This document shows, piece by piece, positions 4,781 to 51,382 of a stretch of 64,000 nt of DNA (the first letter of the stretch is position 1; each line of letters opens with the position of its first letter). The notes under the pieces are model-generated. The model was not told the origin of the DNA. It ran no database searches and saw nothing but the letters and a program-made list of their open reading frames with translations. The position numbers and the translations under genes are program-made. The DNA lies in assembly GCA_934148845.1 (NCBI GenBank), contig CAKPDH010000001.1, forward strand, positions 98,939 through 162,938. Direction: 5' to 3'. The stretch comes from an uncultured Bacilli bacterium (GTDB taxonomy: Bacteria > Bacillota_I > Bacilli_A > RF39 > UBA660).

Positions 4781-4825
4781 TTTATTAATGAAATCATGAT
4801 AAATTATATGAGTTAGGAGGTAATT

Positions 4826-5032
4826 ATGCGTACGTTTTTAATAATTGTTTCAATATTACTAATAGCAATCGTGTTACTTCAAAGTGGTAAAGCAGAAGGT
4901 GCATCTTCAATTATTACTGGTGGTAATAATGATTTGTTTAAAAATAGAAAAGAAAGAGGAGGAGAGTTATTTATTACATATTTAACTGGAATCCTTGGTA
5001 TTATATTTTTAGCACTTTGTATAATTTTATAA
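4826..5032 (+). CDS. secG: Preprotein translocase subunit SecG
   Basis: 68 aa with two TM helices; MRTFLIIVSILLIAIVLLQSGKAEG..GG..LF...ER..L resembles the SecG consensus. RBS AGGAGG. Confidence 0.7.
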   Translation: MRTFLIIVSILLIAIVLLQSGKAEGASSIITGGNNDLFKNRKERGGELFITYLTGILGIIFLALCIIL

Positions 5033-5055
5033 GTTGAGTAATCAACTTTTTTTTT
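5032..5055 (+). terminator. Rho-independent terminator after secG
   Basis: AGTTGA-gtaa-TCAACT followed by T9. Confidence 0.65.
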
Positions 5056-5113
5056 AAAATTGTTTTTTTTTATATTTAAATATGTTAAACTATATATATT
5101 GAAAGGTGATTTT

Positions 5114-10117: not shown

Positions 10118-12514
10118 ATGTATAATTTTGAAAAAATAGAGAAAAAATGGCAAAAATATTGGGAAGAACATGATACTTTTAAAGCATTAAATAATAGTAC
10201 TAAACCAAAATATTATTATTTAGTTGAATTTCCTTATCCATCAGGATCAGGATTACATGTAGGACATGTTAGAAGCTATACTGCACTTGATGCTATGGCT
10301 AGAAAAAAGAGAATGCAAGGATATAATGTATTATATCCAATGGGATGGGATGCATTTGGACTTCCTGCTGAGCAATATGCTATAAAAAATCATATACATC
10401 CAAGTGAGGCTGTTAAAGAAAACATAAAAGTATTTAAAAATCAAATAAAAAAATTGGGTATATCATTCGATTGGTCAAGAGAATTTTCAACAACAGATCC
10501 AGATTATTATAAGTGGACACAGTGGCAATTTTTAAAGTTTTATGAATCAGGAATGGCTTATAAAGCAAAAAAAGAAATTAATTGGTGTCCTAACTGTAAA
10601 ATAGGATTATCAAATGAAGAATCTGAAGGAAATGTATGTGAAAGATGTAATGGACCTGTTGTAAAAAAAGAAAAAGAACAATGGATGTTAAAAATGAGCG
10701 ATTACGCTGAAAAATTACTTGACGGATTAGATAAGACAGAATTTGTTGATAGAATAAAGACAGCTCAAATTAATTGGATTGGTAAGAGTGTAGGTGCAGA
10801 AGTAGATTTTAAGATAAAAGATATAGATGAAGTTTTAAAAGTATTTACAACTAGATGCGATACACTTTATGGTGTTACATTTATGGTAGTGTCACCAGAA
10901 CATCCAATACTAAAAAAATATGAAAATAAAATTAAAAATATAGATGAAGTTAAAAAATATCAATTAGAAGCACAAGCTAAAACAGAAATAGAAAGAACTG
11001 ATTTAACAAGAAAAAAGACTGGTGTTAAGATAGATGGACTTGTAGCCATTAATCCAGTTAATTCAAAAGAAATACCAATATGGATAAGTGATTATGTATT
11101 AGTTAATTATGGTACTGGTGCTATAATGGCAGTTCCAGCTCATGATGAAAGGGATTATGAGTTTGCAAAAAAATTTAATATAGATATTATTCCAGTAATA
11201 GAAGGCGGAGATAATACTTGTGCTTATACTTTAGATGGAGTTCATATTAATTCAGACATACTTAACGGACTTGGCAAAGAAGAAGCTATAGAAAAAATGC
11301 TTAAATATTTAAGTGATAATAAAATAGGTAAGAAAAAAATCAATTATAGATTACAGGATTGGGTTTTTTCAAGACAAAGATTTTGGGGAGAACCTATTCC
11401 AATGGTTCACTGCGAAAAATGTGGTTATGTACCTGTTAAAGAAGAGGATTTACCAGTAACACTTCCAGATGTCGCATCATATGAGCCTACTGATAATGGT
11501 GAAAGTCCTCTTGCAAATATTGAAGAATGGGTAAATACAACTTGTCCAAAATGTGGCGGAAGTGCAAAAAGAGAAACTGATACAATGCCAAACTGGGCTG
11601 GATCAAGCTGGTACTATTTAAGATATATGGATCCTAAAAATGATAAAGAATTTGTATCTCAAGATGCTTTAAAATATTTTAATATGGTAGATTACTATAA
11701 CGGTGGTATGGAGCACGCTACAAGGCATTTACTATATGCAAGATTTTGGCATAACTTCCTATATGATAAAGGGTTAGTTCCATATAGCGAGCCATTTAAA
11801 AAACGTGTAGCTCATGGAATGATACTAGGTGCAAATGGAGAAAAAATGAGTAAATCTAAAGGTAATGTAGTAAATCCTGATGATATGGTTAAAGAATATG
11901 GAGCAGATGCTTTAAGATGTTATGAATTATTTATAGGTGATTATACTATGGATGCTTCTTGGAATGAATTTGGTCTTAAAGGATGCAAAAAGTTCTTAGA
12001 TAGAATCTATAGACTAGGAAATAAACTAAATGATAGTTTAGAATATTCTAAAGATCTTGAAATATTAATAAATCAAAGTATAAAAAAAGTAACTGATGAT
12101 CTTGAAAATATGAAATATAATACTGCAGTATCAACACTTATGATATTACTTAATAAATTTGAAGAAAAAGATACAATAACTAAAAAAGACTATAGAACAA
12201 TTCTTCATTTACTTAATCCAATATCTCCACATATTACCGAAGAATTAAATGAAAAATATAATTTAGGTAATCCATTATGTGAATCAACTTTTCCTAATTA
12301 TGATAATAGTAAACTTGAAAATAATACATTTACTATGATAGTACAAGTAAATGGTAAAGTAAGAGGAAAAATCGAAATTAAATCAGATATAACAGAAGAA
12401 GAAATGAAAGAAAAAGCAAAAAATATAGATAATGTAAAATCATATATTGATGGAAAAGAAATAGCTAAAATAATAGTTGTACCTAAAAAATTAGTAAATA
12501 TAGTAGTTATTTAA
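10118..12514 (+). CDS. leuS: Leucine--tRNA ligase
   Basis: Class I HIGH motif (P.GSGLHVGHVRSY), KMSKS motif (GEKMSKSKGN), CP1 editing and zinc motifs (CPNC..CERC). 798 aa. Confidence 0.95.
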   Translation: MYNFEKIEKKWQKYWEEHDTFKALNNSTKPKYYYLVEFPYPSGSGLHVGHVRSYTALDAMARKKRMQGYNVLYPMGWDAFGLPAEQYAIKNHIHPSEAVKENIKVFKNQIKKLGISFDWSREFSTTDPDYYKWTQWQFLKFYESGMAYKAKKEINWCPNCKIGLSNEESEGNVCERCNGPVVKKEKEQWMLKMSDYAEKLLDGLDKTEFVDRIKTAQINWIGKSVGAEVDFKIKDIDEVLKVFTTRCDTLYGVTFMVVSPEHPILKKYENKIKNIDEVKKYQLEAQAKTEIERTDLTRKKTGVKIDGLVAINPVNSKEIPIWISDYVLVNYGTGAIMAVPAHDERDYEFAKKFNIDIIPVIEGGDNTCAYTLDGVHINSDILNGLGKEEAIEKMLKYLSDNKIGKKKINYRLQDWVFSRQRFWGEPIPMVHCEKCGYVPVKEEDLPVTLPDVASYEPTDNGESPLANIEEWVNTTCPKCGGSAKRETDTMPNWAGSSWYYLRYMDPKNDKEFVSQDALKYFNMVDYYNGGMEHATRHLLYARFWHNFLYDKGLVPYSEPFKKRVAHGMILGANGEKMSKSKGNVVNPDDMVKEYGADALRCYELFIGDYTMDASWNEFGLKGCKKFLDRIYRLGNKLNDSLEYSKDLEILINQSIKKVTDDLENMKYNTAVSTLMILLNKFEEKDTITKKDYRTILHLLNPISPHITEELNEKYNLGNPLCESTFPNYDNSKLENNTFTMIVQVNGKVRGKIEIKSDITEEEMKEKAKNIDNVKSYIDGKEIAKIIVVPKKLVNIVVI

Positions 12515-12529
12515 TTACTATATTTTTTA
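12498..12529 (+). terminator. Terminator hairpin after leuS (5' element of the repeated cassette)
   Basis: ATATAGTAGTT-attt-AATTACTATAT (11-bp stem with one G.U) followed by T-run; the same element recurs at 33628-33659. Confidence 0.55.
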
Positions 12530-12558
12530 TTGCAAATTAAAATAAATAATGATAAAAT
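12530..12558 (+). promoter_or_regulatory. Promoter of the LRR-protein gene
   Basis: TTGCAA -35, 17-nt spacer, TAAAAT -10; an equivalent promoter (TTGTAA-17-TAAAAT) is retained in the decayed copy at 33659-33687. Confidence 0.5.
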
Positions 12559-12580
12559 TAATATGAAAGTAGGAGGATAT

Positions 12581-14014
12581 ATGAAAAACAAAAAGATAAC
12601 AGTAGCTGCACTAATAGTAGCAGTATTAAGTCTTTCAATAGGATTTGCAGCATTTTCAAACAGTTTAAATATTAAAAGTAGTGCGAATGTAAAACCAAGT
12701 GATAAAGACTTTAAAATAGTATTTTCAAAAGAAAGAGATACATTTGTAAGTGGAAATGAAATAATAAATGCAACAGGAGATATTAATGAGAATACAAAAA
12801 AAGGATCAATAAATGATATAGGAGATACATTATATAATCTAGAGACAGAATTTACTACTCCTGGAGAGAGTGTAGAATATAGTTTATATATAAAAAATAT
12901 AGGAGCATATAATGCAGTATTAAATAAACTAGAAATAGAAGAAGCAGAACTAACAAGTGATATAACAGTAGATAACTATTATATAGTAGATAATGGAAGT
13001 GTTAAGTGTTATGCAAAAAAAGATCCACAAAATAAAGCAAATGAAGAATTATTAAAAGAGGCTTGTAATAATATAAAATTAAAAGTAAAACTACAACAAG
13101 AAAGTGAATATATAACAAGTACAAAAGAATTTGATAGTTATGTAATAAATAAAGGAGAAAGTGAGAGTGTTACAGTAACACTAGAATATACAGGAGATAC
13201 ATTAGCTGATACAAATTTTAATGTAGTATTTGGTAGTGTTAAGATGAATTATGCAACAGCAAAGGTAAGTAGTAGTACTCTAGTAGAAGATCAAGTATGT
13301 TTTTATACAGAATTAAATGAAGATAATAGCACATTAAGTATAGCTGGATATAATCCAGAATGTGGTACTGATGTAGTAATACCTGATAGTCTTCCACTAA
13401 CAAGTATAGAAAGCTTAGATACAGAAGCTTGTATTAATGGACTTGTAGCAACAGGAGATTATGACCAAAATTCAGCTACTCAAAGCTGCAGTTTATCAAA
13501 CGAAGATTTATTATATGAATTATCATCAAATAATTTGATGAATACTCTTAAAATTACTAAGAGTACAAATTCTTATTCTGTATCGAAGATAAAAAATAAC
13601 TCATTTGTTGAACTTAATTTAGAAAGCGTAATAATCCCTGGGACAGTAGAGATTATAGGAAGAGAGGCCTTCATTTATAATAATATATCAAGTGTTATTT
13701 TAAATGAGGGAACTAAGACAATTGATTCTTATGCTTTTGCATTAAATAAATTAAAGGAAATAAATATACCAAATAGTGTTGAAACAATAGAGAATTCTGC
13801 ATTTGATTCTAATAATATTCAAATCGTAAGTATAGGGAAGAATATAAATTTTATTGGTGAAAGTGCTTTTGGCAAAAGCAATGAAGAAGGCTATGGACCA
13901 AATAAAATAGAAAGTGTAACTATAAATACAACAAAAGATAAAGTGACAGTAGAAACAAACGTATTTAGCTGGGTATTAGGAAAAAGTGATGCAGATATAA
14001 AATGGGCTGAGTAG
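12581..14014 (+). CDS. Secreted protein with BspA/TpLRR-type leucine-rich repeats and a TasA/camelysin-like (SipW-cognate-type) leader
   Basis: Leader MKNKKITVAALIVAVLSLSIGFAAFSN resembles the TasA ..GGTWAAFND and CalY ..GTFAYFSD cleavage regions. C-terminal about 150 aa are LRR_5-like repeats (IPNSVETIENSAFDSNNIQIVSIG..FIGESAFG). RBS AGGAGG 5 nt before the ATG at 12581; the track start at 12530 is upstream. Confidence 0.6.
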   Translation: MKNKKITVAALIVAVLSLSIGFAAFSNSLNIKSSANVKPSDKDFKIVFSKERDTFVSGNEIINATGDINENTKKGSINDIGDTLYNLETEFTTPGESVEYSLYIKNIGAYNAVLNKLEIEEAELTSDITVDNYYIVDNGSVKCYAKKDPQNKANEELLKEACNNIKLKVKLQQESEYITSTKEFDSYVINKGESESVTVTLEYTGDTLADTNFNVVFGSVKMNYATAKVSSSTLVEDQVCFYTELNEDNSTLSIAGYNPECGTDVVIPDSLPLTSIESLDTEACINGLVATGDYDQNSATQSCSLSNEDLLYELSSNNLMNTLKITKSTNSYSVSKIKNNSFVELNLESVIIPGTVEIIGREAFIYNNISSVILNEGTKTIDSYAFALNKLKEINIPNSVETIENSAFDSNNIQIVSIGKNINFIGESAFGKSNEEGYGPNKIESVTINTTKDKVTVETNVFSWVLGKSDADIKWAE

Positions 14015-14131
14015 TATTTTAGATATTACTTGGGTAAATGGTTAGATAAATGATAAAAATATTTATAAATGTATTTTATAGATATTTTTTTATAAATTTA
14101 TGATATAATTTATTTAGAATGGAGATTTGAA

Positions 14132-15406
14132 ATGATTAAGGTAATTAAGAATGGTACAGTTATTACAATGGACCCAAAAAGAGAAAAAGTAGAAAAATTA
14201 GATATAGTTATTAAAGATAATATAATTATTGATATAACTGATAATTATTGTGGTGCTTATGATGAATTAATAGATGCTAAAGGTAAGATAGTAATGCCTG
14301 GATTAATTAATGCACATACTCATCTTGGTATGAGTATATTTAGAGCTACTAATGATTCACTTAAGCTTCAAGATTGGCTTACTTTAAAAATATGGCCTAT
14401 TGAAGATAAATTAACTAATGATGATGTATACTATAGTACTCTTTTATCTTGTATTGAAATGATTAAAAGTGGAACTACTACAAGTAATGATATGTATTTT
14501 AATTGTGATGGTAGTATTAAAGCTTTAAAGAAAATGAAAGTTAGGTCTTTATTTAGTAGATGCTTGCAAGATTTTGATTCTAATGGGGATTCTAAAATAG
14601 ATGAATTTTTAAAGTTATATGAAGAAAACAAAAATGATGAATTAATTAAATTTTGTGTATCAGCTCATGCTTTTTATACTTGTAGTAGTGAGTATCTAAA
14701 AAAATGTAGTGACCTTGCTTTAAAGCTTGATATGCCACTTCATATACATTTTTGTGAAAACTTAAAAGAAGTAGAAGATATTAAAAATAAATATAATATG
14801 GATCCTATAGATGTATTAGAAGATTTAGGGTTATTAAGAAATAAATTAATACTTGCGCATACAACTTTTATTACTGAAGATAAATTATCAAAATTAAAAG
14901 ATAAAAATGTGAGTTTTGTACACAATCCAATAAGTAATTTAAATCTTGGGTGTGGTATAGCAAATATTAGTAAGTATATGAAATATGTTAATGTATGTCT
15001 TGGAACTGATGGCGTTGGAAGTGGAAATAATATGAATTTATTTTATCACATGTCAGTTACAGATCTATTACAGAAGGGATTATATAAAGATCCTACTATA
15101 ATGTCTTCATATGATGTACTTAAATTAGCTACTATAAATGGTGCTCGAGCTCTTTATATGGATCATAAAATAGGAAGTATAGAAATATCTAAATATGCAG
15201 ATATTATAATAGTTGATTTAAATAATATAGAAACATATCCAACTGTAGATTTAATTAATAATTTAGTACATAATACTACTATATCTAATATAGATACTAC
15301 TATAATCAATGGAGAAGTTTTGATGAAAAATCATAAGATTTTACTTGATATAGATGAAGATCTTTTAAAAGAAAAAATAGATAATATAATAAAACGTGTT
15401 AAATAA
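14132..15406 (+). CDS. mtaD: Amidohydrolase, 5-methylthioadenosine/S-adenosylhomocysteine deaminase-like
   Basis: Metal-dependent hydrolase motifs GLINAHTHLGMS, ..HIHFCE.., ..GTDG..; 424 aa, typical of MtaD/chlorohydrolase-family members. Confidence 0.65.
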   Translation: MIKVIKNGTVITMDPKREKVEKLDIVIKDNIIIDITDNYCGAYDELIDAKGKIVMPGLINAHTHLGMSIFRATNDSLKLQDWLTLKIWPIEDKLTNDDVYYSTLLSCIEMIKSGTTTSNDMYFNCDGSIKALKKMKVRSLFSRCLQDFDSNGDSKIDEFLKLYEENKNDELIKFCVSAHAFYTCSSEYLKKCSDLALKLDMPLHIHFCENLKEVEDIKNKYNMDPIDVLEDLGLLRNKLILAHTTFITEDKLSKLKDKNVSFVHNPISNLNLGCGIANISKYMKYVNVCLGTDGVGSGNNMNLFYHMSVTDLLQKGLYKDPTIMSSYDVLKLATINGARALYMDHKIGSIEISKYADIIIVDLNNIETYPTVDLINNLVHNTTISNIDTTIINGEVLMKNHKILLDIDEDLLKEKIDNIIKRVK

Positions 15407-15459: not shown

Positions 15460-15825
15460 ATGAAAACAATTATTGTAGCAGATGATTCGATGATAGTAAA
15501 AAATATAGTTGAACAGGCTCTTATGGATGAATATGATGTAGTTAAAACATCAAGTGGAGCTGAAACATTAGATTTTATTATTAATAATAAAGATAAGGAT
15601 ATAAAAGGTTTATTACTTGATCTTAATATGCCTGGCACTGATGGCTTTATGGTTTTAAATTATTTTAAAAATGCTAATTTATTTCAAAAGATAAAAGTTT
15701 CAATAATATCTGGTGATGATACTAAAGAAACTATAGATAAAGCATTTACATATGATATAGTTGATATGCTAAATAAACCATTTAATAAAGCAAATATTAA
15801 AAATATAGTAAATAAAATGATATGA
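15460..15825 (+). CDS. Single-domain response regulator (CheY-like receiver only)
   Basis: 121 aa. Acidic pocket IIVADDS, phospho-acceptor LLLDLNMPGTDG, conserved S/T (IISGD) and K (LNKPF). No output domain. RBS AAAGGAG. Confidence 0.75.
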   Translation: MKTIIVADDSMIVKNIVEQALMDEYDVVKTSSGAETLDFIINNKDKDIKGLLLDLNMPGTDGFMVLNYFKNANLFQKIKVSIISGDDTKETIDKAFTYDIVDMLNKPFNKANIKNIVNKMI

Positions 15826-15942
15826 GTGTGTAAAGAATTCTATATAAATGGAATCTAACCACGATATTTTGAAACCTTAATTGGTTTTTTTATCTAAATA
15901 ATAACATATAATGTTTAATTTTCAAAGAATTAAATTTTTCTA

Positions 15943-16225
15943 TTAAACAAATAGATAATCCAGATAATATAGTTTCCAAATTTCTATATGCTTGATCCCT
16001 TTTAGATATATTTTTAAACATTTAAGTAATGCCATATCTGTTGGAAAAACAGATATGGTTTTATTAAATTTTCTATATTGTCTATTTAATTATTTGATTG
16101 TATTAGTTGTATACATAATTTTTCTAATTTCATTTGAGAATTGAAAAAATAGACAAATTGCATCCAATTTTCCTTCCTTTTGAATAATCAAATTCGGCGT
16201 TCATCATTTCTTATAATAATTTTAA
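15943..16225 (-). pseudogene. Remnant of an IS256/mutator-family transposase (C-terminal about 90 codons, with internal stop and frameshift)
   Basis: Minus-strand translation gives ..FFQFSNEIRKLCIQLIQSNN*IDNIEN.. and, in another frame, NRQYRKFNKTISVFPTDMALLKCLKIYLKGIKHIEIW. These match the conserved C-terminal block of IS256-family transposases (F.FP.eIRK.IYTTNaIEslN.q.RK..k...vFP.d.aalKl.yL......kW). No upstream catalytic region and no terminal inverted repeats found. Confidence 0.45.
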
Positions 16226-16373
16226 TATTTCTTTCCGCTTGCTATTTTTCCCATAATAAAAACCTCTCCATTTCTTTTATTTTATTATAGAAATAAAGGC
16301 TCAATTATATTGAAATATGATTAATTTAATTCAAAATAATTAATTTCCTTGTATTTATATAATTAGTTTTAGT

Positions 16374-28074: not shown

Positions 28075-29516
28075 TGAAAAATATTGTAGAACTTAGAAAA
28101 GATTTAGATAATAATAATGTTACACCAGAAGATTTATTTAAGTGCGCTAATATGAAGGCTCATAAGTATCAAGATGAATTTAATTCATTTGTAACTATAC
28201 TTGATTCTTGTAATTATAATAGTTCAAATTCTATTTTAAATGGAATACCTTATGCACTTAAGGATAACTTTTCTACAAAAGGAATATTATCCACATCATC
28301 ATCAAATATATTAAAAGATTATGTTCCAGTATATGATGCTACTGTATATAAAAAATTAAAAGAAGCTGGCGCTATACTTGTAGGTAAAACAGTTTTAGAT
28401 GAACTTGCTATGGGTGGAACTGGTACAACTGGTCATACTGGTATAGTAAGAAATCCTTGGGATAAAAATAGACAAATAGGAGGATCTTCCGCTGGTTCAG
28501 CTGCTTCAGTCGCACTTGGTATAGTTCCTTTTGCAATTGGATCAGATACTGGGGACTCAGTAAGAAAACCAGCTGCTTATGGTGGCATTGTAGGATTTAA
28601 ACCAACGTATGGTAGAATATCAAGATATGGACTTTTTGCTTTTGCATCTAGCTTAGATCATGTTGGTATTTTTACACGTAATGTTTTAGATTGTGCTATA
28701 GTAACAGATATAATTAAAGGAAAAGATGAGAGGGATATGACCTCTCTACCTGATGATAATATTAAATATACTGACTTTATAAATGATGATATTAAAGGTA
28801 AAAAATTATTTTATATTAAAGAGTTAACAGATAAAAATTTATATAAAGATAATGATGAAACATTGGAAATTTTATCTAAGTTTGAAGAAAATATAAATAA
28901 ACTTAGAAAAATGGGATTTATTGTTTCAGAAGTATCTTTTGATGAAAAATTATTAAAAGCTATTTATCCTTCTTATATGGCAATTAGTTGTGCCGAAGCA
29001 ACTAGCAATAATTCTAATCTTACTGGTATAATATTTGGCCCAAGAGGTGCTGGAGATAATATTAATGAAATAATGTTTAATGCTAGAACTAATGGATTTT
29101 CTGAACTAATTAAGAGAAGATTTATTTTAGGTAGTTATATTTTACAAAAAGAAAATCAAGAAAGACTATTTAAAAATGCACAAAGACTTAGAAGAATTAT
29201 TGTAGATAAAATGAATGAATTATATAAAGAATATGATGCTATGATATTACCCGCAAGCGGTGGTATAGCTCCAAAATTTGAAGATGAGATAGATAGAATG
29301 AGCGATAGATATTTAATGCTTGAAAATCATATGGCAATAGGTAATTTCGGTGGCTTTCCAAGTATAACTATACCAGCAGGATTTGTAAAAAATATGCCAA
29401 TAGGTATAAATATAACAGGAAAATGTTTTTCTGATTCACTAGTTCTTAATATAGCAAATAAAATAGAAGAAGAATTAGGATATAAAGATTTAATTAAGGA
29501 GGAATATGATGTATAA
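28074..29516 (+). CDS. gatA: Glutamyl/aspartyl-tRNA amidotransferase subunit A (amidase signature)
   Basis: Amidase signature GGSSAGSAASVALG..GSDTGDS.R.PA, catalytic Ser-cisSer-Lys region. 480 aa. Confidence 0.9.
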   Translation: MKNIVELRKDLDNNNVTPEDLFKCANMKAHKYQDEFNSFVTILDSCNYNSSNSILNGIPYALKDNFSTKGILSTSSSNILKDYVPVYDATVYKKLKEAGAILVGKTVLDELAMGGTGTTGHTGIVRNPWDKNRQIGGSSAGSAASVALGIVPFAIGSDTGDSVRKPAAYGGIVGFKPTYGRISRYGLFAFASSLDHVGIFTRNVLDCAIVTDIIKGKDERDMTSLPDDNIKYTDFINDDIKGKKLFYIKELTDKNLYKDNDETLEILSKFEENINKLRKMGFIVSEVSFDEKLLKAIYPSYMAISCAEATSNNSNLTGIIFGPRGAGDNINEIMFNARTNGFSELIKRRFILGSYILQKENQERLFKNAQRLRRIIVDKMNELYKEYDAMILPASGGIAPKFEDEIDRMSDRYLMLENHMAIGNFGGFPSITIPAGFVKNMPIGINITGKCFSDSLVLNIANKIEEELGYKDLIKEEYDV

Positions 29517-30933
29517 GACTGTAATTGGACTTGAAGTACACTGTGAGGTTATTACTAATTCAAAAAACTTTTCAACTGCTAAAAATTCATATTCAGAATA
29601 TCCAAATGAAAATATTGATACAACAGATATAGGTCTTCCTGGAGTTCTTCCAATAGCTAATCGTGAAGCATTTAGAAAATCACTTATGATGGCACTTGCT
29701 CTTAATTGTCAAACTCCAGATATAGTTATGTTTGACAGAAAAAATTATTATTATCCTGATTTACCTAAAGGATATCAAATAACTCAAATGACAAAACCAG
29801 TAGGTATTAATGGATATGTAATGATTAATGTAGACGGTGTCGATAAAAAAGTTGAAATTGATAATATTCATTTAGAAGAAGATACAGCTTCTATGGAGCA
29901 TTTTAGTAATTATTCATTAATCGATTACAATAGAGCAGGAGTACCATTACTTGAAGTTGTAACAACTCCTTGTATGTATTCAGTAAAAGAAGCATTAACA
30001 TTTCTAGAAGCATTAAAAGGTATATTTCTTTATACTGGAGTATCTTTAGCTAGAGTTGATAGAGGACAAATGAGATGTGATGTAAATGTTAATCTTATGG
30101 ATTCTAATGGTAATTATATAACTCCTAAAGTAGAAATGAAAAATATTAATAGCTTTAATAATGTAAAATTAGCTATAGAAGCTGAGGTTAAAAGACAAAT
30201 TGAATGTCTAGAAACAGGTAAGGAAGAATTAATACAAGAAACTCGTAGATTTGATGAAGAAAATCTTACTACACATAGAATGCGTAGTAAAGCTGATGCT
30301 ATTGATTATAAATATTATATAGAACCTAATATTCCACCTATTAAAATAACAGATGAATGGGTATCAGAAATAAAAAGTGAAATACCTATGTTACAATTTG
30401 AAAGAGTAAATAATTATATAAATAATCTTAATTTGAATAGAAAAGAATCTGAATTATTAGTTCATGATAAAAAAATATCAGACTATTTTGAAAATGTTAT
30501 AAAATTAGGTGTTAAACCTAAAGATGCCTCAAACTGGATAACAACAAATGTTATGGGCTATTTAAATAAAAATGGTAAAAATATAGATGAGATTAATTTA
30601 AGTCCTGAATATTTAGCACAATTAATAAAATTAGTTGACACTGGTAAAATATCTGGAAAGCAATCAAAAGAAGTATTTGAACAAATATTAGTTTCATCTA
30701 AATCGCCAGAAGAAATAGTAAAAAGCCTTAACATAACTCAAATTACTGATTTAGATACAATAAGAAATATAGTAGTAAAATTATTAGATAACTATCCAAA
30801 CTTAATAGAGGATCATAAAAAAGGTAAAAATACATTTGATTTCTTTGTAGGTCAAGTAATGAAAGAAACTAAAGGTAGAGCTAATCCAAGTATAACAGCA
30901 CGTATTATAAAAGAAGAAATGGAGGATAGATAA
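29506..30933 (+). CDS. gatB: Glutamyl/aspartyl-tRNA amidotransferase subunit B
   Basis: GLEVHCEV.., ..NRAGVPLLEVVT.., C-terminal YqeY-like tail; 475 aa. Overlaps gatA by 11 nt. Confidence 0.9.
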   Translation: MMYKTVIGLEVHCEVITNSKNFSTAKNSYSEYPNENIDTTDIGLPGVLPIANREAFRKSLMMALALNCQTPDIVMFDRKNYYYPDLPKGYQITQMTKPVGINGYVMINVDGVDKKVEIDNIHLEEDTASMEHFSNYSLIDYNRAGVPLLEVVTTPCMYSVKEALTFLEALKGIFLYTGVSLARVDRGQMRCDVNVNLMDSNGNYITPKVEMKNINSFNNVKLAIEAEVKRQIECLETGKEELIQETRRFDEENLTTHRMRSKADAIDYKYYIEPNIPPIKITDEWVSEIKSEIPMLQFERVNNYINNLNLNRKESELLVHDKKISDYFENVIKLGVKPKDASNWITTNVMGYLNKNGKNIDEINLSPEYLAQLIKLVDTGKISGKQSKEVFEQILVSSKSPEEIVKSLNITQITDLDTIRNIVVKLLDNYPNLIEDHKKGKNTFDFFVGQVMKETKGRANPSITARIIKEEMEDR

Positions 30934-30934
30934 T

Positions 30935-32311
30935 ATGGATTTAAAAGATTTATTAAAAGAAATAGAAAAATATGAAGGAAAAGAAATTACCATAAATGGT
31001 TGGATAAAAAGTCATAGAAAACAAAAAGAATATGGATTTATTGATTTTACTGATGGTACTTGTTTTCAAACACTTCAAGTTGTATATGATAATAAATTAG
31101 AAGATTTCCTAGATATTCAAAAATTACATATAGGAAGCGCTATAGAATTAAATGGTATTATAATTAGGTCCGAAGGTGGAGGACAAAGCCATGAATTAAA
31201 ATTATCAAAAATTAAATTATTGGGTGATTGTCCACTAGATTATCCACTACAATCAAAAGGGAGACCAACTAGAGAATTCTTAAGAGAAATTGCATACTTA
31301 AGACCTCGTACAAATCTTTATAATAATGTTTTTCGTGTAAGAAGTGTAGCTGCATACGCTATACATAAATATTTTCAAGAAAATGGCTATGTATATTTTC
31401 ATGCTCCATTAATTACAGCAAGTGATTGTGAAGGGGCAGGTGAGATGTTTCAAGTAACAACTCTTGATCTAAATAAAATAGCTGAAAGTGGAAAGGTTGA
31501 TTATTCAAAAGACTTCTTTGGTAAACCTGCATCCCTTACTGTAAGTGGTCAACTTCAAGCAGAAACATTTGCGCTTGCATATAAAAAGACATATACATTT
31601 GGTCCCACATTTAGAGCAGAAAATTCAAATACTAAAACACATGCAAATGAATTTTGGATGATTGAACCAGAAATCGCATTCTGTGACCTTGAAGGCGATA
31701 TGAATATTATGGAAGATATGCTTAAATATGTAGTTAAGTATGTACTTGATAATTGTAAGAGTGAAATGTCATTTTTTGATTCGTACGTTGAAAAAGGTCT
31801 AATTAATAAATTAACTAAGCTTGTTAATAGTAAGTTTGTAAGAATAGATCATAAAGAAGTTATTTCTATTTTGAAAAAAGCAGATGTAAAATGGGAATTT
31901 GAACCAGAATATGGTGAAGATATTGCAAAAGAACATGAAAAATATATTACTGAGTATTTTGATGGACCAGTATTTATAAAAAATTGGCCAAAAGATATAA
32001 AAGCATTCTATATGAAACAAAATGATGATTTAGAAACAGTAGCTGCTGTTGATCTTGAAGTTCCAGGAGCAGGTGAGCTTATGGGTGGATCTCAAAGAGA
32101 AGAAAGCTATGATAAGCTATTAAATAGAATGAAAGAACTAAATATGAGTACAGACGGGTTAGATTGGTATTTAAATTTAAGAAAATTTGGTGGATGTGTA
32201 CATTCAGGATTTGGAATGGGATTTGAAAGATTACTTATTTATTTAACTGGTGTAGATAATATAAGAGATGTTATTCCTTATTATAGAACACCAGGAAATT
32301 GTGATTATTAA
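30935..32311 (+). CDS. Class IIb aminoacyl-tRNA synthetase, AsnRS-like (asparaginyl-tRNA synthetase or archaeal-type non-discriminating AspRS)
   Basis: 458 aa. N-terminal OB anticodon-binding domain. Motif 2 [28 protein letters not shown] (close to B. subtilis AsnS [28 protein letters not shown]), motif 3 ..GFGMGFERL.. Length excludes bacterial-type AspRS (about 590 aa). Confidence 0.8.
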   Translation: [458 protein letters not shown]

Positions 32312-32325
32312 AATTTATAAATTAA

Positions 32326-32355
32326 AGCATTTAAACTATTTGAATGCTTTTTTAA
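32326..32355 (+). terminator. Terminator after the aaRS gene
   Basis: AAAGCATT-11 nt-AATGCTTT followed by a T-rich tract. Confidence 0.5.
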
Positions 32356-32408
32356 TTTTAAATTTCAATTTTTCTTTTTTTAGACATATATTTTAATAGG
32401 AGGTATAT

Positions 32409-33614
32409 ATGTTTAAAAAAATTTGGAAAAATTATAAATTTCCAATTATATTATTAATTTCTATAATAATAGGATGTATTTTAGGAATTATTTTAGGTGA
32501 TAATGCTATATCATTAAAACCTATAGGAACTATATTTATAAATATGCTTTATGTAATAGTAGTTCCTTTAGTATTCTTTACTATTTCTAGTAGTATATCA
32601 AGTATTAAAAGTTTAAAAAAACTTGGTAAAATATTTAAAGTAATGTTTATTGTATTTATTATAACAAGTATGTTATCTGCTTTATTTACTTTAATTGGTG
32701 TTAAAATAATAGACCCTGTTGGTAATATTAATATAAGTCTTACAGCAGGTACTAAAGAAAATATAGATATTGGAAGTAAAATAGTTGATATGTTAACGGT
32801 TTCAGACTTTTATCAATTATTATCTAAAGGTAGTATGTTACCACTTATTATATTTTCTATAATATTTGGATTTGGTGTAGGAATGGTAAAGGATGAATCA
32901 AAAAAAATATCTGATGCTTTAAATTTAATATCAAAAGTAATGATGAATGTAATAAAAATAATTATGTATTATGCTCCTATAGGATTATGTGCTTATTTTG
33001 CAGCACTTATAGGAGAATATGGTAAAGAAATAATAGGTAGTTATGCTAGAAGTATGATATTTTATTACATTATGGCTATATTGTATTATGTTATATTTTA
33101 TACTATATATAGCTATATATATAAGAAAAAAAGAGGAGTTAAAGAGTTTTTTAAAAGTGCTTTTACTCCAACAGTAACATCACTTGGCACCTGTTCTTCA
33201 CTTGCAAGTCTTCCATCAAATTTAGAATGTGCTACAGAACTTGGAATAGATGATGATGTAGCTAAAACAACACTTCCAATAGGAGCTACTATGCATATGG
33301 AAGGATCCAGTATGGCATCAATTCTAAAAATAGCTTTCTTATTTGGTGTATTTGGTAAAAGTTTTACAGGAATAGATACATATCTAATAGCTATTTTAAT
33401 TTCAGTATTATCAGGAGTAGTAATGTCAGGAATACCTGGTGGAGGATTAATAGGAGAAATGCTAATAGTTTCATTATATAATTTCCCATTAGAAGCATTC
33501 CCTATAATTGCAACAATAGGCTGGATAGTAGATCCACCAGCTACTTGCTTAAATGTAGTAGGAGATGTTGCTAGTGCGTCTCTCATAGATAAATATATAA
33601 ATAAAAAAAGTTAA
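32409..33614 (+). CDS. Dicarboxylate/amino acid:cation symporter (DAACS family)
   Basis: 401 aa, 8-10 TM segments with re-entrant-loop-like regions (..TLPIGATMHMEGSSMA.., ..SGIPGGGLIGE..) typical of GltP/SstT-like transporters. RBS AGGAGG. Confidence 0.65.
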   Translation: MFKKIWKNYKFPIILLISIIIGCILGIILGDNAISLKPIGTIFINMLYVIVVPLVFFTISSSISSIKSLKKLGKIFKVMFIVFIITSMLSALFTLIGVKIIDPVGNINISLTAGTKENIDIGSKIVDMLTVSDFYQLLSKGSMLPLIIFSIIFGFGVGMVKDESKKISDALNLISKVMMNVIKIIMYYAPIGLCAYFAALIGEYGKEIIGSYARSMIFYYIMAILYYVIFYTIYSYIYKKKRGVKEFFKSAFTPTVTSLGTCSSLASLPSNLECATELGIDDDVAKTTLPIGATMHMEGSSMASILKIAFLFGVFGKSFTGIDTYLIAILISVLSGVVMSGIPGGGLIGEMLIVSLYNFPLEAFPIIATIGWIVDPPATCLNVVGDVASASLIDKYINKKS

Positions 33615-33627
33615 ACTATAACGTAAA

Positions 33628-33807
33628 ATATAGTAGTTATTTAATTACTATATTTTTTTTGTAAATTAGATTAACTAATGATAAAATTAATATGTAAGCT
33701 AGGAGGATATATGAAAAATAACAGTAGCTGTAAGTAGTAGCATTAGGTAATTCTGTATTTAATTGGTATCAGGAAAAAGTGATGCAGATATAAAATGGGC
33801 TGAATAA
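33628..33807 (+). pseudogene. Deletion remnant of a second copy of the LRR-protein gene (terminator hairpin + promoter + 5' 40 nt + 3' 55 nt of CDS)
   Basis: 33628-33659 repeats the leuS-terminator hairpin (ATATAGTAGTTATTTAATTACTATAT + T-run). 33659-33687 retains TTGTAA-17-TAAAAT. AGGAGGATATATGAAAAA(9-nt deletion)TAACAGTAGCTG matches 12571-12615, then jumps to ..GGAAAAAGTGATGCAGATATAAAATGGGCTGAATAA, matching the last codons of the 12581-14014 gene (..GKSDADIKWAE*). Confidence 0.55.
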
Positions 33808-33883
33808 AAATATAGAGTTTTCTATCTTTTTTTATTAAATTATTATTAAGTATGGTATAATTAGATAGTAGAAAAGAGGATTT

Positions 33884-36028
33884 ATGAATAAAGATTTAAT
33901 AAAGGAGATAAGTAATGAACTTGGTATTACTGTAAAACAAGTAGAAGTTACTTTAAAATTACTAGAAGAAGGAAATACTATACCATTTATAGCTCGTTAT
34001 AGAAAGGAAGCAACAAATGCATTAAATGAAGATCAAATTAAATCTATAGGTGATGTTTATTCATATCAATTAAATTTATTAAAGAGAAAAGAAGATGTAA
34101 TAAGATTAATAGATGAAAAGGGAATGCTTACAGATGAGCTTAAGTCTTCAATTTTATCATGTACTAAACTTGTTGATGTAGAAGATTTATATAGGCCTTA
34201 TAAGGAGAAGAAGAAGACTAAAGCAACTCTTGCTATAAAAAACGGTCTTGAAGGTCTTGCAAAGGAATTGATGGAGTTTAATGCTTGTGATATTAATGCA
34301 GTAGCTAGTAAGTATTTAAATGATAATGTTAAAACTATATTAGATGCAGTTACAGGTGCTAAATATATAATTGCTGAAAATATAAGTGATAATGCTAAAT
34401 ATAGAAAGTATATAAGGGATAATACATATAATTATGGAACTATTAAAAGTAAAATAAAAAAAGATGCAGTAGATACTAATAAAGTGTATGATATGTATTA
34501 TGATTATGAGGAAAAAATTAAATATATAAAGCCTCATAGAATACTTGCTTTAAATAGAGGAGAGAATGAAGGCATACTCAGTGTTTCTATACAAAATGAT
34601 AAGGATAAAGTACTTTCTTATTTGTATAAGAAGGTGATTAAAAATGACTTATCACCATCTGCAAATATTGTGAAAGAAGCAATAGATGATTCTTATAAGC
34701 GACTTATATTTCCATCAATAGAACGTGAAATTAGAAGTGAATTAACTCTTTTAGGTGAAGATGCAGCTATTTTAAATTTTTCTAAAAATTTAGAGTCATT
34801 ATTATTAACTCCACCTATAAAAGAAAAAATTGTATTAGCTTTTGACCCTGGTTTTGTTAATGGATGTAAAATAGCTGTAATAGATGCAACAGGTAAATAT
34901 TTAGATTCTACAGTAATAAAACCATTTTTAAAAAGTAATGATAATTATTTAAAAGAAATGGAAATAGTAAAAGATTTAGTAATTAAATATAATGTAGATA
35001 TAATAGCAATTGGAAATGGAACAGCTTCACGTGAATCAGAAAGGTTTATATCTGATTTAATTAAAAAGTATAATTTAAATTGTAAATATATAATAGTATC
35101 TGAAGCTGGTGCTTCAATATATAGTGCATCTAAGCTTGCACAATTAGAATTTCCAGATCTAGAAATAGAAAAAAGAAGTGCCGTTAGTATAGGTAGAAGA
35201 CTTCAAGATCCTTTATCTGAGCTTGTTAAAATTCCACCAGAAGGAATAGGCGTTGGGCTGTATCAACACGATGTATCACAAAAAAAATTAAGTGAAAATC
35301 TTGATTTTGTTGTTAGTAAAACTGTAAATAATGTAGGAGTAAATGTAAATACAGCATCAACTGCTTTACTTAAATATGTATCTGGTTTTACTAAGAAAAA
35401 TATAGAAAAAATAATTGAATATAGAAATAAAATGGGTAAATTTAAATCTAGAGATGAAATAGAAAAATTATTAAGTGATAAAGTTTACGAACAATCAATT
35501 GGATTTTTAAGAATTACAGATGGTTCAAATATATTAGATTCAACTTCTATACATCCAGAAAGTTATAATATAGTTTTAAAGCTTTTAGAGAGTCTTAATA
35601 TGAATTTAAGTGATATTGGTACAGAAAAATTAATATCTATGCTTGATAACATTAATTTAAATGAATATAAAGATATTCTTAATACCGATATTTATACATT
35701 AGAAGATTTAATTAAATCATTAAAAAAGCCTAATAGAGATCCTAGAGATTATATAGATGCTCCTATTTTAAAAAGTAATATATTAGAGCTTAATGATCTA
35801 AGTGTAGGAATGCATCTTCAAGGTACTGTTAGAAATGTAGTTGACTTTGGAGCTTTTATAGATATTGGATTACACGAAGATGGACTTGTTCATATATCTA
35901 AAATAACTAATAAATATATAAAACATCCAAGTGAAGTATTAAGTGTTGGAGATATAGTTGATTGCTATGTAGATGAAATAAAACTTGATAAGAAGAAAGT
36001 TTCGCTTAGTTTAATTAAACCTAGTTAA
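33884..36028 (+). CDS. tex: Transcription accessory protein Tex
   Basis: 714 aa. N-terminal helix-hairpin-helix/YqgF-like regions, ..IAIGNGTASRESE.. (YqgF/RuvC-like), HhH region, C-terminal S1 domain (..GTVRNVVDFGAFIDIGLHEDGLVHISK..). Confidence 0.85.
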   Translation: MNKDLIKEISNELGITVKQVEVTLKLLEEGNTIPFIARYRKEATNALNEDQIKSIGDVYSYQLNLLKRKEDVIRLIDEKGMLTDELKSSILSCTKLVDVEDLYRPYKEKKKTKATLAIKNGLEGLAKELMEFNACDINAVASKYLNDNVKTILDAVTGAKYIIAENISDNAKYRKYIRDNTYNYGTIKSKIKKDAVDTNKVYDMYYDYEEKIKYIKPHRILALNRGENEGILSVSIQNDKDKVLSYLYKKVIKNDLSPSANIVKEAIDDSYKRLIFPSIEREIRSELTLLGEDAAILNFSKNLESLLLTPPIKEKIVLAFDPGFVNGCKIAVIDATGKYLDSTVIKPFLKSNDNYLKEMEIVKDLVIKYNVDIIAIGNGTASRESERFISDLIKKYNLNCKYIIVSEAGASIYSASKLAQLEFPDLEIEKRSAVSIGRRLQDPLSELVKIPPEGIGVGLYQHDVSQKKLSENLDFVVSKTVNNVGVNVNTASTALLKYVSGFTKKNIEKIIEYRNKMGKFKSRDEIEKLLSDKVYEQSIGFLRITDGSNILDSTSIHPESYNIVLKLLESLNMNLSDIGTEKLISMLDNINLNEYKDILNTDIYTLEDLIKSLKKPNRDPRDYIDAPILKSNILELNDLSVGMHLQGTVRNVVDFGAFIDIGLHEDGLVHISKITNKYIKHPSEVLSVGDIVDCYVDEIKLDKKKVSLSLIKPS

Positions 36029-36039
36029 GAGGAGATTTT

Positions 36040-39000
36040 ATGGCATGGACAAAAGAACAAGAAGAAGCAATAACAAGAACTGGAACTAATATAATAGTAA
36101 GTGCAGGTGCAGGAAGTGGAAAAACTGCTGTATTAACGGAAAGAACAATACGTAAATTATTAAATGGTGAAAGTATTAATAAGCTTTTGATTCTAACGTT
36201 TACAAATGCAGCAGCAGGTGAGATGAGGGAGAGAATAAGAAGAGAATTAAAAAAGTCTGGTCTAGTAGATGAACTAGATAATATAGATTCAGCTTATATC
36301 ACAACATTCGATTCTTTCGCACTTTCTGTTGTAAAAAAATACCATTATCTTCTTAATGTTCCAAAAAATATATCAATTATGGATTCATCAATTGAAATTG
36401 TAAAAACAGATGAAATAATTAATGATATATTTTTGGATATGTATTCTAGGGATGATTTTAAAAAATTCATAGGCGACTTTTGTTATAAAAGTGATGATAA
36501 TGTAAAAGAAGTAATAAAAGAATTAAATAAAAAATTAGATTTACTTCCAAATAAGATAGAATACTTATCAAACTATACAGATAAATTTTTTAGTTTAGAT
36601 AATATCAATAAATATGTAGATGAATATTTAGATTTAATTAAAAAGAAAGTATCACAGATAAATACACCATATGAAAATCTTGTAAGCTTAACAGATAATA
36701 AATATATTGAAAAATTTAATTTAGAGCCATTACTTAATTCAAAAACATATGAAGATATTAAAATGAATATAGGCCTCATAGGATCACCTAGAAAAAATCA
36801 AAATTGCTCTCCTGATTTTGTTATTTATAAAGACTTAATTATGGAAAAAATAAAAGCACTAAAAGAATATACAAGATTTAATGATGTCCTTGACATAAAA
36901 GAATCTTTATTATCTATTAAGCCATATATAAAAGTAATATGCGATATTATTATTAAATTGGATTTAGAGTTTAATAAATATAAGAAGGAAAAAAATTTAT
37001 ATACTTTTTCTGATATAGCACTAATGTCAATAAAAGTAGTAAGTGAAAATGAAGATGTAAAAGAAGAATTAAAAAATTCATTTTCAGAAATTATGCTTGA
37101 TGAATATCAGGATACAAGTGATATTCAAGAAAAATTTATTAATCTAATTTCAAATAATAATGTATATATGGTAGGTGATATAAAACAATCTATATATAGA
37201 TTTAGACATGCTAATCCTTATATATTTAGGGATAAGTATGATAATTATTCAAAAAATAATGGCGGAATAAAAATTGATTTATTAAAAAATTTTAGAAGTA
37301 GAGAAGAAGTACTTGATAATATTAATTTAATATTTAATTTAATTATGGATAATAATATAGGCGATGCTGAGTATAAATTATCTCATCAGATGAATTATGG
37401 TAATATAAGTTATTCAAATGAATTAAAAACATCTAATGATAATAATATGGATATATTTACTTATGAAAAGTTGGATGAATATTCTAATGATGAGGTAGAA
37501 GCTTTTTTTGTAGCGCATGATATAAAAGAAAAAATTGATAATAAATATGAAGTTGTAGATAAAAATACTAAAATGCTAAGAGCTTGTACATACTCGGATT
37601 TTGCTATAATAATGGATCGTGGAAGTAGTTTTGATTTATATAAAAAAATATTTGAATATTTAGGTATTCCTATATCTCAAATAAAGAATGAAAAACTTAC
37701 GAGTGGCTATGATATAACAATAATTAGTAATTTAATAAATTTAATTATAAAAATAAATGATAAAGAGTATGATAATGATTTTAAATATTATTATACTAGT
37801 GTATCTAGATCATACTTAAATAAAATAAGTGATGAAGAACTGTTTACAATAGTTAGTGAAAATAAATATTTTGATACTGAATTATTTATTAAATGTAAAA
37901 ATATAAATATATTAGAACTTTCTTGTTACTCATTACTTAATAAAATAATAAATGAATTTAACTTTTATGAAAAAATATTAACACTAAATAATATAAAAGA
38001 AAAACAAATTAAAATGGAATACTTATTGAATTTAAGTGAAAGTTTATCTAACATAGGTTATACTCCAAAAATGTTTGCTTTATATTTAAACGAAATGAAA
38101 GATAAGGAATCAATAGAATATTCTTTAAATCAAAATGATTCTAATAGTGTTAAAATATTAAATATACATAAAAGTAAAGGGCTAGAATATAATATTTGTT
38201 ATTTTACAGGATTATATAAAAAGAAAAACGATGAAGAGAAGAAGGCTAGATTTTTAGTGGATTCTAATTTTAATATAGTAACCCCTTATGTTAATAATGG
38301 AATTAAAAATACTATATTAAAGGATCTTATAATAGATAAAAATGCAAAAGATGATATAAGTGAAAAAATAAGATTATTTTATGTAGCGCTTACACGTGCT
38401 AAAGAAAAAATTATTTTAGTTTTACCATCTAATGATTCTAAAGATTCATACACAACTCTTGTTCCAGATGAAGTAAGACTTAAGTATAATAGTATGGCAT
38501 CTTTCTTATATTCAATATATCCAGTATTAACAAGATATATTAAAGAGATAGATTTTAATAAAGTTATATTAACTAAAGACTATGATAAAATAAAAAAGTA
38601 TAATTATAAAAGTTTAATAAAAAAAAGTAATGTTAGTATAATAAAAAAGAAAAATAATATAGAATATAATCTTTTAAATGAATCTAGATATTCAAAACAT
38701 TCAAATAATTTAATTACTATAGATGAATATAATAATATGAAAGAAGGTACTAAATTTCATTATATTTTTGAAGTAGAGGATTTTAATACAACTACTAATA
38801 AGTATGTTTTAAAATTTTTAAAACATATTGATAATAATTATATTAACTGTTATAAAGAATATGAATTTATTTATACTAGTAATTTAGAAGTTAAAAAGGG
38901 TATTATAGACCTATTACTTGAATATGAAGATCATTTTGATATAATAGATTATAAAATGAAAAATATATATGATTTAAATTATGTAAAACAATTAAATGGA

Positions 39001-49873: not shown

Positions 49874-51382
49874 ATGAAAAGAAAAGGATTTACATTAATA
49901 GAACTACTTGCAGTAATAGTAATACTTGCAATAATAGCTTTAATAGCAACTCCAATTATACTTGGTATAATAGAGGATACGAGAAATTCATCAAAAGATG
50001 AAAGTGTAAAATTATATTTAGACACTTTAAAGAAGAGTATAGCATCTGTGCTTGCAACTGATCCAAAATTTGATACACAATATTTAGAATGTGGTGTGAA
50101 TAGTGATAGTAGTGCAGTTTGTAATTATAAAAATATAAAAGTTGAAATTAGTGGTAATACTCCTATATCAGGTAGGATTACTATTGAAAATGGTAAAATT
50201 ATTAGTGCAATAAATTTACAATTTAAAAATGATGATAATATTTATAAATTTGAGAATAATAAATTAGTATTAATGTCTCTTGATGAATTAACTGAAAGCT
50301 GCTTTGTAAGTTTAACTCAAGGTGAAATAAGCGTATATGATACATTTTGTCCCAAAAATATAAAGTTGAGTAAAAATTTGGGATTACCGGTTAGTACAGT
50401 AAAACAAAGTTCGTTTAATAAATCAAAGTGTATGGCATATGCAAAATCTTCTTCTGATGTTAATGATATTATGACAGAAGAAGAATTGTGTGCTGCTATT
50501 GCTAGTAATTATGAAAATTTTGATACCGCAATAAAAATTAAAGTTGGAGATGTAACATTTGAAAGAACTAAAGACAAGTATAAAATATCAAAAATAGGAA
50601 ATTCTGCTTTTGTAGGTAATGGAATAACAAATATAGAACTATCAGATAATATAGTTGAAATAGGTGCAAATGCATTTTCAGGAAATAGTTTAACAAGTAT
50701 CAAAATTCCAAATAGCATAACAAGTATAGGAGATAATGCATTTTCAAATAATAAACTTACAAACATAATAATTCCAAATAGTATAACAAATATAGGTGAA
50801 TCTGTTTTTGAAGAAAATGAGTTAATAAGTGTCGAAATTCCAAATAGTGTAACAAGTATAGGTGATTATGCATTTAGCGATAATAAACTTACAAATGTAA
50901 GTATTCCAGATAGTGTAACAAATATAGGTAGGGAAGCATTTTCAAATAATAAGCTTAAAAGTGTAACTGTTCCAAAGAATTTAACAACAATGGGATATTA
51001 TATATTTTCTAACAATAAAATATCAACTGTGAAAATATCTGATGGTGTTAAGGAAATTAGCTTCGGAATGTTTTATAAAAATGAACTTACAAGTGTAAGT
51101 ATTCCAAATAGCGTAACTAGAATAGAGACTGATGCATTTAATTATAATAATATAACTAATGTAGAAATTGGATCAGGAATTGAATATTTAGGAACACGTT
51201 GTTTTTATAATGATAAAGAAGTTGATGAGAATAATAATATAACGTATGGCCCAAATGAAATTAAAGTATTTAAAATACATAAGACAAAAGATGAAAGCAT
51301 ATTTAAAAATGGTAACTATAATAAAACTGTTTTCATAGGTAGCGATGGTAAGAGTAATTCAAATATAATTTGGGATAGTTAA
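49874..51382 (+). CDS. Type IV pilin-like (class III signal peptide) protein with C-terminal BspA/TpLRR-type leucine-rich repeats
   Basis: N-terminus MKRKG|FTLIELLAVIVILAIIALIATPIILG: basic leader, Gly-Phe cleavage site, Glu+5 and hydrophobic helix of prepilins. C-terminal about 250 aa consist of about 9 tandem LRR_5-like units (IPNSITSIGDNAFSNNKLTNI...). Paralogous C-terminal domain to the 12581 gene. Confidence 0.65.
   Translation: MKRKGFTLIELLAVIVILAIIALIATPIILGIIEDTRNSSKDESVKLYLDTLKKSIASVLATDPKFDTQYLECGVNSDSSAVCNYKNIKVEISGNTPISGRITIENGKIISAINLQFKNDDNIYKFENNKLVLMSLDELTESCFVSLTQGEISVYDTFCPKNIKLSKNLGLPVSTVKQSSFNKSKCMAYAKSSSDVNDIMTEEELCAAIASNYENFDTAIKIKVGDVTFERTKDKYKISKIGNSAFVGNGITNIELSDNIVEIGANAFSGNSLTSIKIPNSITSIGDNAFSNNKLTNIIIPNSITNIGESVFEENELISVEIPNSVTSIGDYAFSDNKLTNVSIPDSVTNIGREAFSNNKLKSVTVPKNLTTMGYYIFSNNKISTVKISDGVKEISFGMFYKNELTSVSIPNSVTRIETDAFNYNNITNVEIGSGIEYLGTRCFYNDKEVDENNNITYGPNEIKVFKIHKTKDESIFKNGNYNKTVFIGSDGKSNSNIIWDS

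Follow-up and report, generated by a model that had tools for sequence, protein, structure and literature searches.

What occupies the spacer between the sodium:dicarboxylate symporter family (SDF) gene and tex in this uncultured gut bacterium? In the 64,000-nt stretch of DNA analysed here (the window), which has a G+C content of ~25%, the two genes are separated by 269 nt, and this spacer houses the remnant of an LRR-family gene, which we refer to as the ghost. An intact paralogue stands after leuS in the same window, and an intact gene, encoding the protein P0007, stands at the ghost's own site in a contig from a different sample (L103). The features that bear on the question, all on the + strand, are as follows:

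12496–14014, +: intact leuS-site paralogue with the same hairpin, promoter and RBS cassette, CDS 12581–14014 (477 aa, N-terminal module plus LRR_5)
32409–33614, +: SDF gene (401 aa), the upstream neighbour (Pfam PF00375, E 3e-93)
33625–33661, +: hairpin and T-run, likely the SDF terminator and the first element of the shared cassette (from folding and identity to the leuS site)
33659–33687, +: retained sigma-70-type promoter of the ghost, with −35 TTGTAA, a 17-nt spacer and a TG-extended −10 TAAAAT (promoter scan)
33701–33713, +: ghost RBS AGGAGG (33701–33706) and ATG (33711–33713), the same as in the intact paralogues (sequence reading)
33711–33742, +: ghost 5′ coding debris, 32 nt, codons 1–14 (signal/anchor segment) with indels (alignment to L103:5001-5042 and six family loci)
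33742–33743, +: deletion junction, ..GTAGCA / TTAGGT.., joining the equivalents of L103:5042 and L103:6300
33743–33807, +: ghost 3′ coding debris, 65 nt, the last 21 codons and the stop at 33805–33807 (alignment to L103:6300-6365)
33808–33834, +: degraded ghost terminator hairpin, then a T-run (folding and alignment to L103)
33853–33861, +: TGgTATAAT, likely the extended −10 of the tex promoter (from sequence; same in L103)
33884–36028, +: tex (714 aa), the downstream neighbour (Pfam Tex_N, Tex_YqgF, HHH and S1 domains)

Could the resemblance of the spacer to the leuS-site gene simply reflect AT-rich, low-complexity sequence? When positions 33560–33900 were compared with the whole window by BLASTN, two strong matches to the leuS-site gene were obtained, colinear with it and on the same strand: 33626–33745 aligned with 12496–12625 at 84.7% over 131 columns (E 1.3e-35), and 33755–33806 aligned with 13961–14013 at 90.6% over 53 columns (E 2e-14). 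The next-best non-self matches reached E ~1e-5 and came from the hairpin's own palindrome, and the remainder had E ≥ 1e-3. The similarity is thus significant against the window background, and AT-rich low-complexity noise is excluded as its source. The hairpin and T-run AAATATAGTAGTTATTTAATTACTATATTTTTT are identical at 33/33 positions between the SDF site and the leuS site (12496–12528), the segment from the RBS to the start TAGGAGGATATATGAAAA is identical at 18/18 positions, and residues 465–477 of the leuS-site protein (LRR1) match the 3′ debris at 92% by tblastn. The original prediction had described 33628–33720 as a near-copy of 12498–12595, which the first block upholds; the 5′ homology does not end there, however, and runs on to 33742, taking in codons 1–14 from the ATG at 33711. 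The predicted copy of the gene's 3′ end is also present, at 65 nt (21 codons plus stop) rather than about 55 nt. A further BLASTN match within the window, between 33645–33718 and 33819–33891 (76% similarity), is most simply explained by two AT-rich regions, each with a T-run, promoter, RBS and ATG, resembling one another.

Furthermore, we observed an intact gene at the same site in a related strain. A family search yielded the full-length relatives P0002–P0011, and a look-up of P0007 then led to L103, a 119.7-kb contig with the gene order gatA–gatB–asnS–SDF–P0007–tex–uvrD. In this contig, the SDF gene is followed by 96 nt, the intact P0007 gene (454 aa; an LRR_5 protein, Pfam E 1.5e-38), 80 nt and tex. 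The window and L103 are 99.37% identical over 28711–33745 and 99.25% identical over 33736–38803 (~99.3% over 5 kb of each flank), with 10 nt at the junction (33736–33745) covered by both alignments. Since the flank alignments meet at the junction, the intact gene occupies exactly the SDF–tex site in a conspecific strain. These results bear out the central claim made earlier for this locus, namely that an LRR-family gene once stood between SDF and tex and was killed by an internal deletion that spared its two ends.

Two more contigs (L089 and L090) encode an identical SDF protein, and in both, the sequence continues from the SDF flank across the cassette and into a family ORF that is still open at the contig end. 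Together with L103, they have the flank variant CGTAAATATAG (the intact type), where the ghost has CGTAAAATATAG. The position of the SDF gene was unchanged in all strain contigs compared. All comparison sequences are short-read metagenome contigs, in which the 700-nt repeat between paralogues can yield chimeras. From its sequence, L103 is unlikely to be one, with its left and right junctions each lying in non-repeated sequence: the left passes from the unique SDF flank to the intact-type cassette, and the right from the unique LRR 3′ region to the tex flank. A join inside the shared 700 nt is the sole part that could be ambiguous.

By what route was the coding sequence lost? The ghost's true parental allele lies outside the sampled set, so that the deletion's precise extent and frame, and how perfect the microhomology was, are judged from a relative; in the base-level alignment to L103, 1257 nt, or 419 codons, are missing between codon 14 and codon 434, and the primary deletion would consequently have been in frame relative to the L103 allele. 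Against the leuS-site paralogue, 1326 nt are missing. The predicted excision of coding sequence is therefore real, but both comparisons put it below the about 1.4 kb first proposed. The 7 nt preceding the breakpoints read AGTAGCA and AGTAACA when taken from L103, which is not the true parent, and match at 6/7 positions with an exact run of 2 nt only; in the L103 gene, only 0.5% of breakpoint pairs drawn at random do as well. Such a match is consistent with, though no proof of, slippage or illegitimate recombination at short, imperfectly matched direct repeats, the probable origin of the deletion.

Secondary lesions relative to L103 comprise changes of −8, −3 and +1 nt in the 5′ debris, the first of which falls between ATAA repeats just past the start codon, and −1 nt in TGG(G)TA of the 3′ debris. 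With 419 codons gone and four small indels, the reading frame is destroyed; the first stop follows after 8 codons, and the remaining ORF reads MKNNSSCK-stop. No LRR_5 domain was detected in the ghost, whose LRR region has been deleted entirely; the leuS-site paralogue and P0007 both carry the domain. After restoration of the 1-nt deletion, the 3′ debris reads LGNSVFNW(V)SGKSDADIKWAE-stop, and the full restored reading is LGNSVFNWVSGKSDADIKWAE-stop. The restored C-terminus matches motifs in P0002–P0008 and differs from P0007 and LRR1 (the ghost's 3′ end is LGNSVFNWVSGKS... compared with LGDTAFNWVKGKS... in P0007). Being family-like yet unlike P0007 and LRR1, it points to a parental allele that was a distinct family variant.

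The ghost and L103 diverge by ~8% in the cassette but by 0.7% in the flanks. The ghost may be far older than the divergence of its flanks would suggest, or else gene conversion may have been overwriting the intact alleles. One share of the cassette divergence is allelic, being common to the copy at the tsf site, a second occurs in the ghost alone, and a third may stem from homogenisation among the intact copies.

Could the remnant still be transcribed? The hairpin at the SDF site lies 11 nt past the SDF stop and has a 14-bp stem (−10.7 kcal/mol, z = −4.6 against shuffles) followed by T8; judged by its position and fold, it is most simply read as the likely intrinsic terminator of the SDF gene. 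The stem is rich in A-T and G-U pairs with one G-C pair, and the consensus terminator scan rejected it because the scan demands at least 3 G-C pairs. Downstream of it, the ghost promoter scores 9 of 12 with the TG in the promoter scan and aligns with the promoters of all intact family members. The three substitutions found only in the ghost all fall in the promoter spacer, and the 17-nt length is kept. Two other differences, TTGTAA and the pre-RBS TGTAAGC, were considered as promoter decay and rejected, as they are family variants common to the tsf-site copy.

On the other hand, the ghost terminator hairpin has lost 4 loop nt and gained one stem mismatch, leaving −3.5 kcal/mol (z −0.4) compared with −9.1 kcal/mol (z −3.9) for the intact terminator at L103:6362-6402. 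Given a consensus-like promoter and RBS together with a degraded terminator, the ghost is probably still transcribed, with read-through into tex. The likely extended −10 TGgTATAAT of tex is identical in L103 and was uncalled by the promoter scan, since it has no −35 match.

Taken together, these observations make it highly probable that the SDF–tex spacer is what remains of a once-intact member of a multi-copy LRR family, which underwent one internal deletion of ~1.26 kb and then decayed. In an ancestor of this strain, a single deletion took out ~1.26 kb between codon 14 and a point 21 codons short of the stop. The deleted allele later gained the four small indels, leaving the 8-codon ORF, and the locus can no longer yield the LRR protein. 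The pieces that survive would be those that the neighbours need, namely the hairpin terminator of SDF and the region containing the tex promoter.

How widely is this arrangement found in the lineage? We surveyed 80 tex loci of GTDB species representatives at 66–79% Tex identity, the closest of which are MAGs titled "uncultured Bacilli bacterium", "Mycoplasma sp. CAG:877" and "Clostridium sp. CAG:594". An SDF gene upstream of tex, or an LRR gene there, was found in 0 of the 80. Because tex synteny is not conserved at this level of identity, only strain-level comparisons are informative. In a few related species (contigs L032 and L074, ~4555–6001), asnS directly adjoins tex; given this order, the SDF gene and the LRR site may be a lineage-specific insertion. 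In a separate observation, contig L105 encodes two SASP-family proteins and a CotE homologue (3239–3845 and 15817–16347), a hint, from gene content, that sporulation may occur in this uncultured, small and highly AT-rich Bacilli lineage.

To what kind of family did the lost gene belong? The leuS-site product LRR1 is a BspA-type LRR_5 protein (Pfam E 6e-21). An exact protein look-up found no identical database entry for LRR1, and the nearest entry, P0001, differs by one residue. Its N-terminus has a predicted helix at residues 4–28, plausibly a signal/anchor segment, and a beta-rich module comes after it. Across the family, an N-terminal module of ~235 aa with a hydrophobic signal/anchor segment is conserved and precedes a variable leucine-rich-repeat domain of the BspA/TpLRR type. 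One relative, P0011, encoded after tsf (L105:10001-11599), has the ~235-aa module fused to an unrelated C-terminus of ~300 aa with no Pfam match, which indicates that the module behaves as a portable unit. The second LRR_5 gene of the window (49874–51382) belongs to a different subfamily; its identity, at 36%, is confined to the LRR part, and it lacks the cassette. That gene has a prepilin-type N-terminal methylation motif (PF07963 / TIGR02532), an architecture that several database relatives share.

The family is dispersed over at least six loci, which lie after leuS, valS, tsf and a glycosyltransferase gene (a tandem pair) and between SDF and tex. We aligned six family loci (after leuS, SDF, valS, the glycosyltransferase gene in two contigs, and tsf). 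Homology between loci starts at the −35 box and ends at the stop or ~35 nt past it. Paralogues at different loci are 96–100% identical over the first ~700 nt, ~50% in the LRR core and ~85% over the last ~100 nt. The promoter is common to all paralogous loci, but the identical hairpin is found at the leuS and SDF sites only; the glycosyltransferase site has a different hairpin, and valS and tsf have none of this type. Consequently, the terminator–promoter–gene unit proposed in the original prediction is supported only in part: it holds for the promoter and 5′ coding sequence at all loci, and for the hairpin at two.

Did the family spread as such a block, or does it recombine? All four combinations of the variants in the pre-RBS segment, codon 3 and codon 13 are found among the loci, and strains differ in promoter and 5′ coding variants at the same locus. 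At the SDF site alone, three cassette types were found by strain: that of L103, a leuS-like type in L089 and a tsf-like type in the ghost, whose TTGTAA...ATATGTAAGCTAGGAGG matches the tsf-site copy. The sharing of promoter and 5′ coding variants across loci favours gene conversion among the paralogues. The prediction had offered both possibilities, and the distribution of these sequence variants favours "recombines" over "spreads" as a fixed block.

The repeated 5′ module also left traces in the assemblies. In L100, at the glycosyltransferase site, a second family copy lies in tandem directly after P0004 (6582–6865; cassette and 5′ coding sequence 94–96% identical), and the contig ends inside it. 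L101 joins the upstream flank of the glycosyltransferase site to the downstream flank of the leuS site (an amidohydrolase gene, 98.6% identical to window positions 14015–14303), and L102 has the upstream flank of the valS site with a downstream gene, for an AMP-binding enzyme, unlike that in L099. Both L101 and L102, which qualify the gene-conversion reading, may be real rearrangements between paralogues or short-read chimeras formed through the 700-nt repeat. Among contigs covering the leuS site (L094, L095, L096 and L097), many metagenome contigs end 114–177 nt into the family gene there. In practical terms, these contig ends indicate that the repeated 5′ module breaks up short-read assemblies of this species.

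Could the ghost itself then be an assembly artefact, in which a full-length gene is present and has been collapsed to the ends that its paralogues share? The near-identical 700-nt 5′ region at several loci, the many contigs that break within family genes and certain short contigs that join flanks of different loci would all favour such a collapse. Yet the ghost spacer is 100% identical in three independent assemblies (L001–L003) and base-identical across samples and assemblers, including a 340-kb contig at 153× coverage. Of the listed occurrences of the identical SDF protein, 22 were read and 20 contigs accounted for; in 16 of these 20, tex lies at +270, the ghost spacing. The junction is present in ~17 independent metagenome contigs. 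L085, L087 and L091 differ from the ghost by SNPs at 33738 and 33744 but not in the junction, so that three SNP haplotypes share one junction, at which there is no shared repeat longer than 7 nt. The −8, −3, +1 and −1 indels and the unique substitutions are absent from every intact copy, and a collapse cannot create them. A collapsed assembly, which the original prediction had named as grounds for doubt, is in our view extremely improbable and is effectively refuted already. JGI contig L104 has ghost-specific sequence after the hairpin, and a scan of JGI metagenomes with the SDF-side flank returned one short ghost-type contig only. In the ghost-bearing contig L091 (1604–3765), tex is split into ORFs of 489 aa and 198 aa, which may reflect a frameshift, pseudogene formation or a fault in the assembly. 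When Tex, SDF and LeuS were looked up by exact sequence, they matched human-gut metagenome contigs from the Hadza and other cohorts; a search of a plasmid collection gave no match. Intact and deleted alleles coexist in the human-gut population of an uncultured low-GC Bacilli species.

Two further explanations grant that the deletion is real and assign the remnant a function. If the spacer were an empty expression site, its ends would serve as recombination handles through which an LRR cassette from a paralogue could refill it, as part of a system of surface variation. The mosaic family genes, with conserved ends and a variable core, fit such a scheme, as does the retention of ~117 nt, from the hairpin to codon 14, and of 65 nt homologous to the paralogues; the four variant combinations and the three cassette types at the SDF site likewise fit gene conversion between loci. 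However, the breakpoint falls inside the conserved 5′ module (codon 14 of ~235) rather than at the boundary between conserved and variable parts, the frameshifting indels and degraded terminator are those expected of neutral decay, and no recombinase, inverted repeats or silent cassette array was found near the ghost. Refilling of the site would at most be compatible with the data, and we consider a dedicated expression site very unlikely. A broader proposal, in which the ghost is one state of a recombination-driven repertoire of surface proteins whose LRR cores are swapped, and whose loci are emptied and possibly refilled, between strains, also seems unlikely to us, if less so. The shared promoter and 700-nt 5′ module and the ~60–100-nt 3′ end could then act as handles for gene conversion, and the mosaicism is seen between strains. 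As for co-option of the ghost by tex as a regulatory leader or additional promoter, or of the ghost's 8-codon ORF as a leader peptide, the intact promoter, RBS and ATG would allow it, and a terminator weaker than that of the intact allele makes read-through into tex plausible. Against this, tex keeps its own extended −10, identical in strains with the intact allele, no Rfam family matches the spacer, the SNPs of the ghost haplotypes lie in the debris, and the upstream neighbours of tex in other species are unrelated; the 8-codon ORF is a mere frameshift product. We give this possibility next to no credence.

Among known systems, the ghost comes close to the pseudogene remnants that arise in bacterial genomes, under deletional bias, by deletion between short direct repeats. 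The ghost resembles such pseudogenes in its internal deletion, flanked as judged from L103 by a short imperfect repeat, its subsequent frameshifting indels and the intact orthologue in sister strains. Unlike in those cases, the deletion left the two outermost ends and every regulatory element of the flanks in place, and the deleted allele is common, forming the majority among the sampled contigs. In comparison with BspA/TpLRR-type surface proteins (Pfam LRR_5, PF13306), the ghost keeps none of the LRR domain; the family itself departs from them in its ~235-aa N-terminal module, for which searches of Pfam, NCBIfam and PDB sequences gave nothing significant, and in the non-LRR C-terminus of P0011. 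A literature search found nothing on this family or lineage.

Multi-copy families of variable surface proteins with conserved 5′ regions and variable bodies are also known, such as the variable lipoproteins of Mycoplasma and the BspA-like expansion of Trichomonas (PMC2843621). The LRR family resembles them in its dispersed copies, its near-identical promoter and N-terminal coding sequence, its divergent repeat domain, and its signs of exchange between copies and of gain and loss between strains. It differs in that no machinery for phase variation, be it an invertible promoter, a homopolymer tract or a recombinase, was seen at SDF–tex, and that the variation observed is between strains.

These results indicate that the SDF–tex spacer should be annotated as a pseudogene remnant with a live-looking promoter, and not as empty intergenic DNA or as a small ORF. 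The site offers a clean presence/absence polymorphism, resolved to the base, in a putative surface adhesin; the bacterium is a human-gut species that only metagenomes have revealed. That genes decay by internal deletion is well established, and the mosaic, multi-locus family is a more interesting lead than the ghost itself: through the ghost, a multi-copy family comes to light whose 5′ halves are nearly identical, disrupt short-read assemblies and seem to swap sequence between loci.
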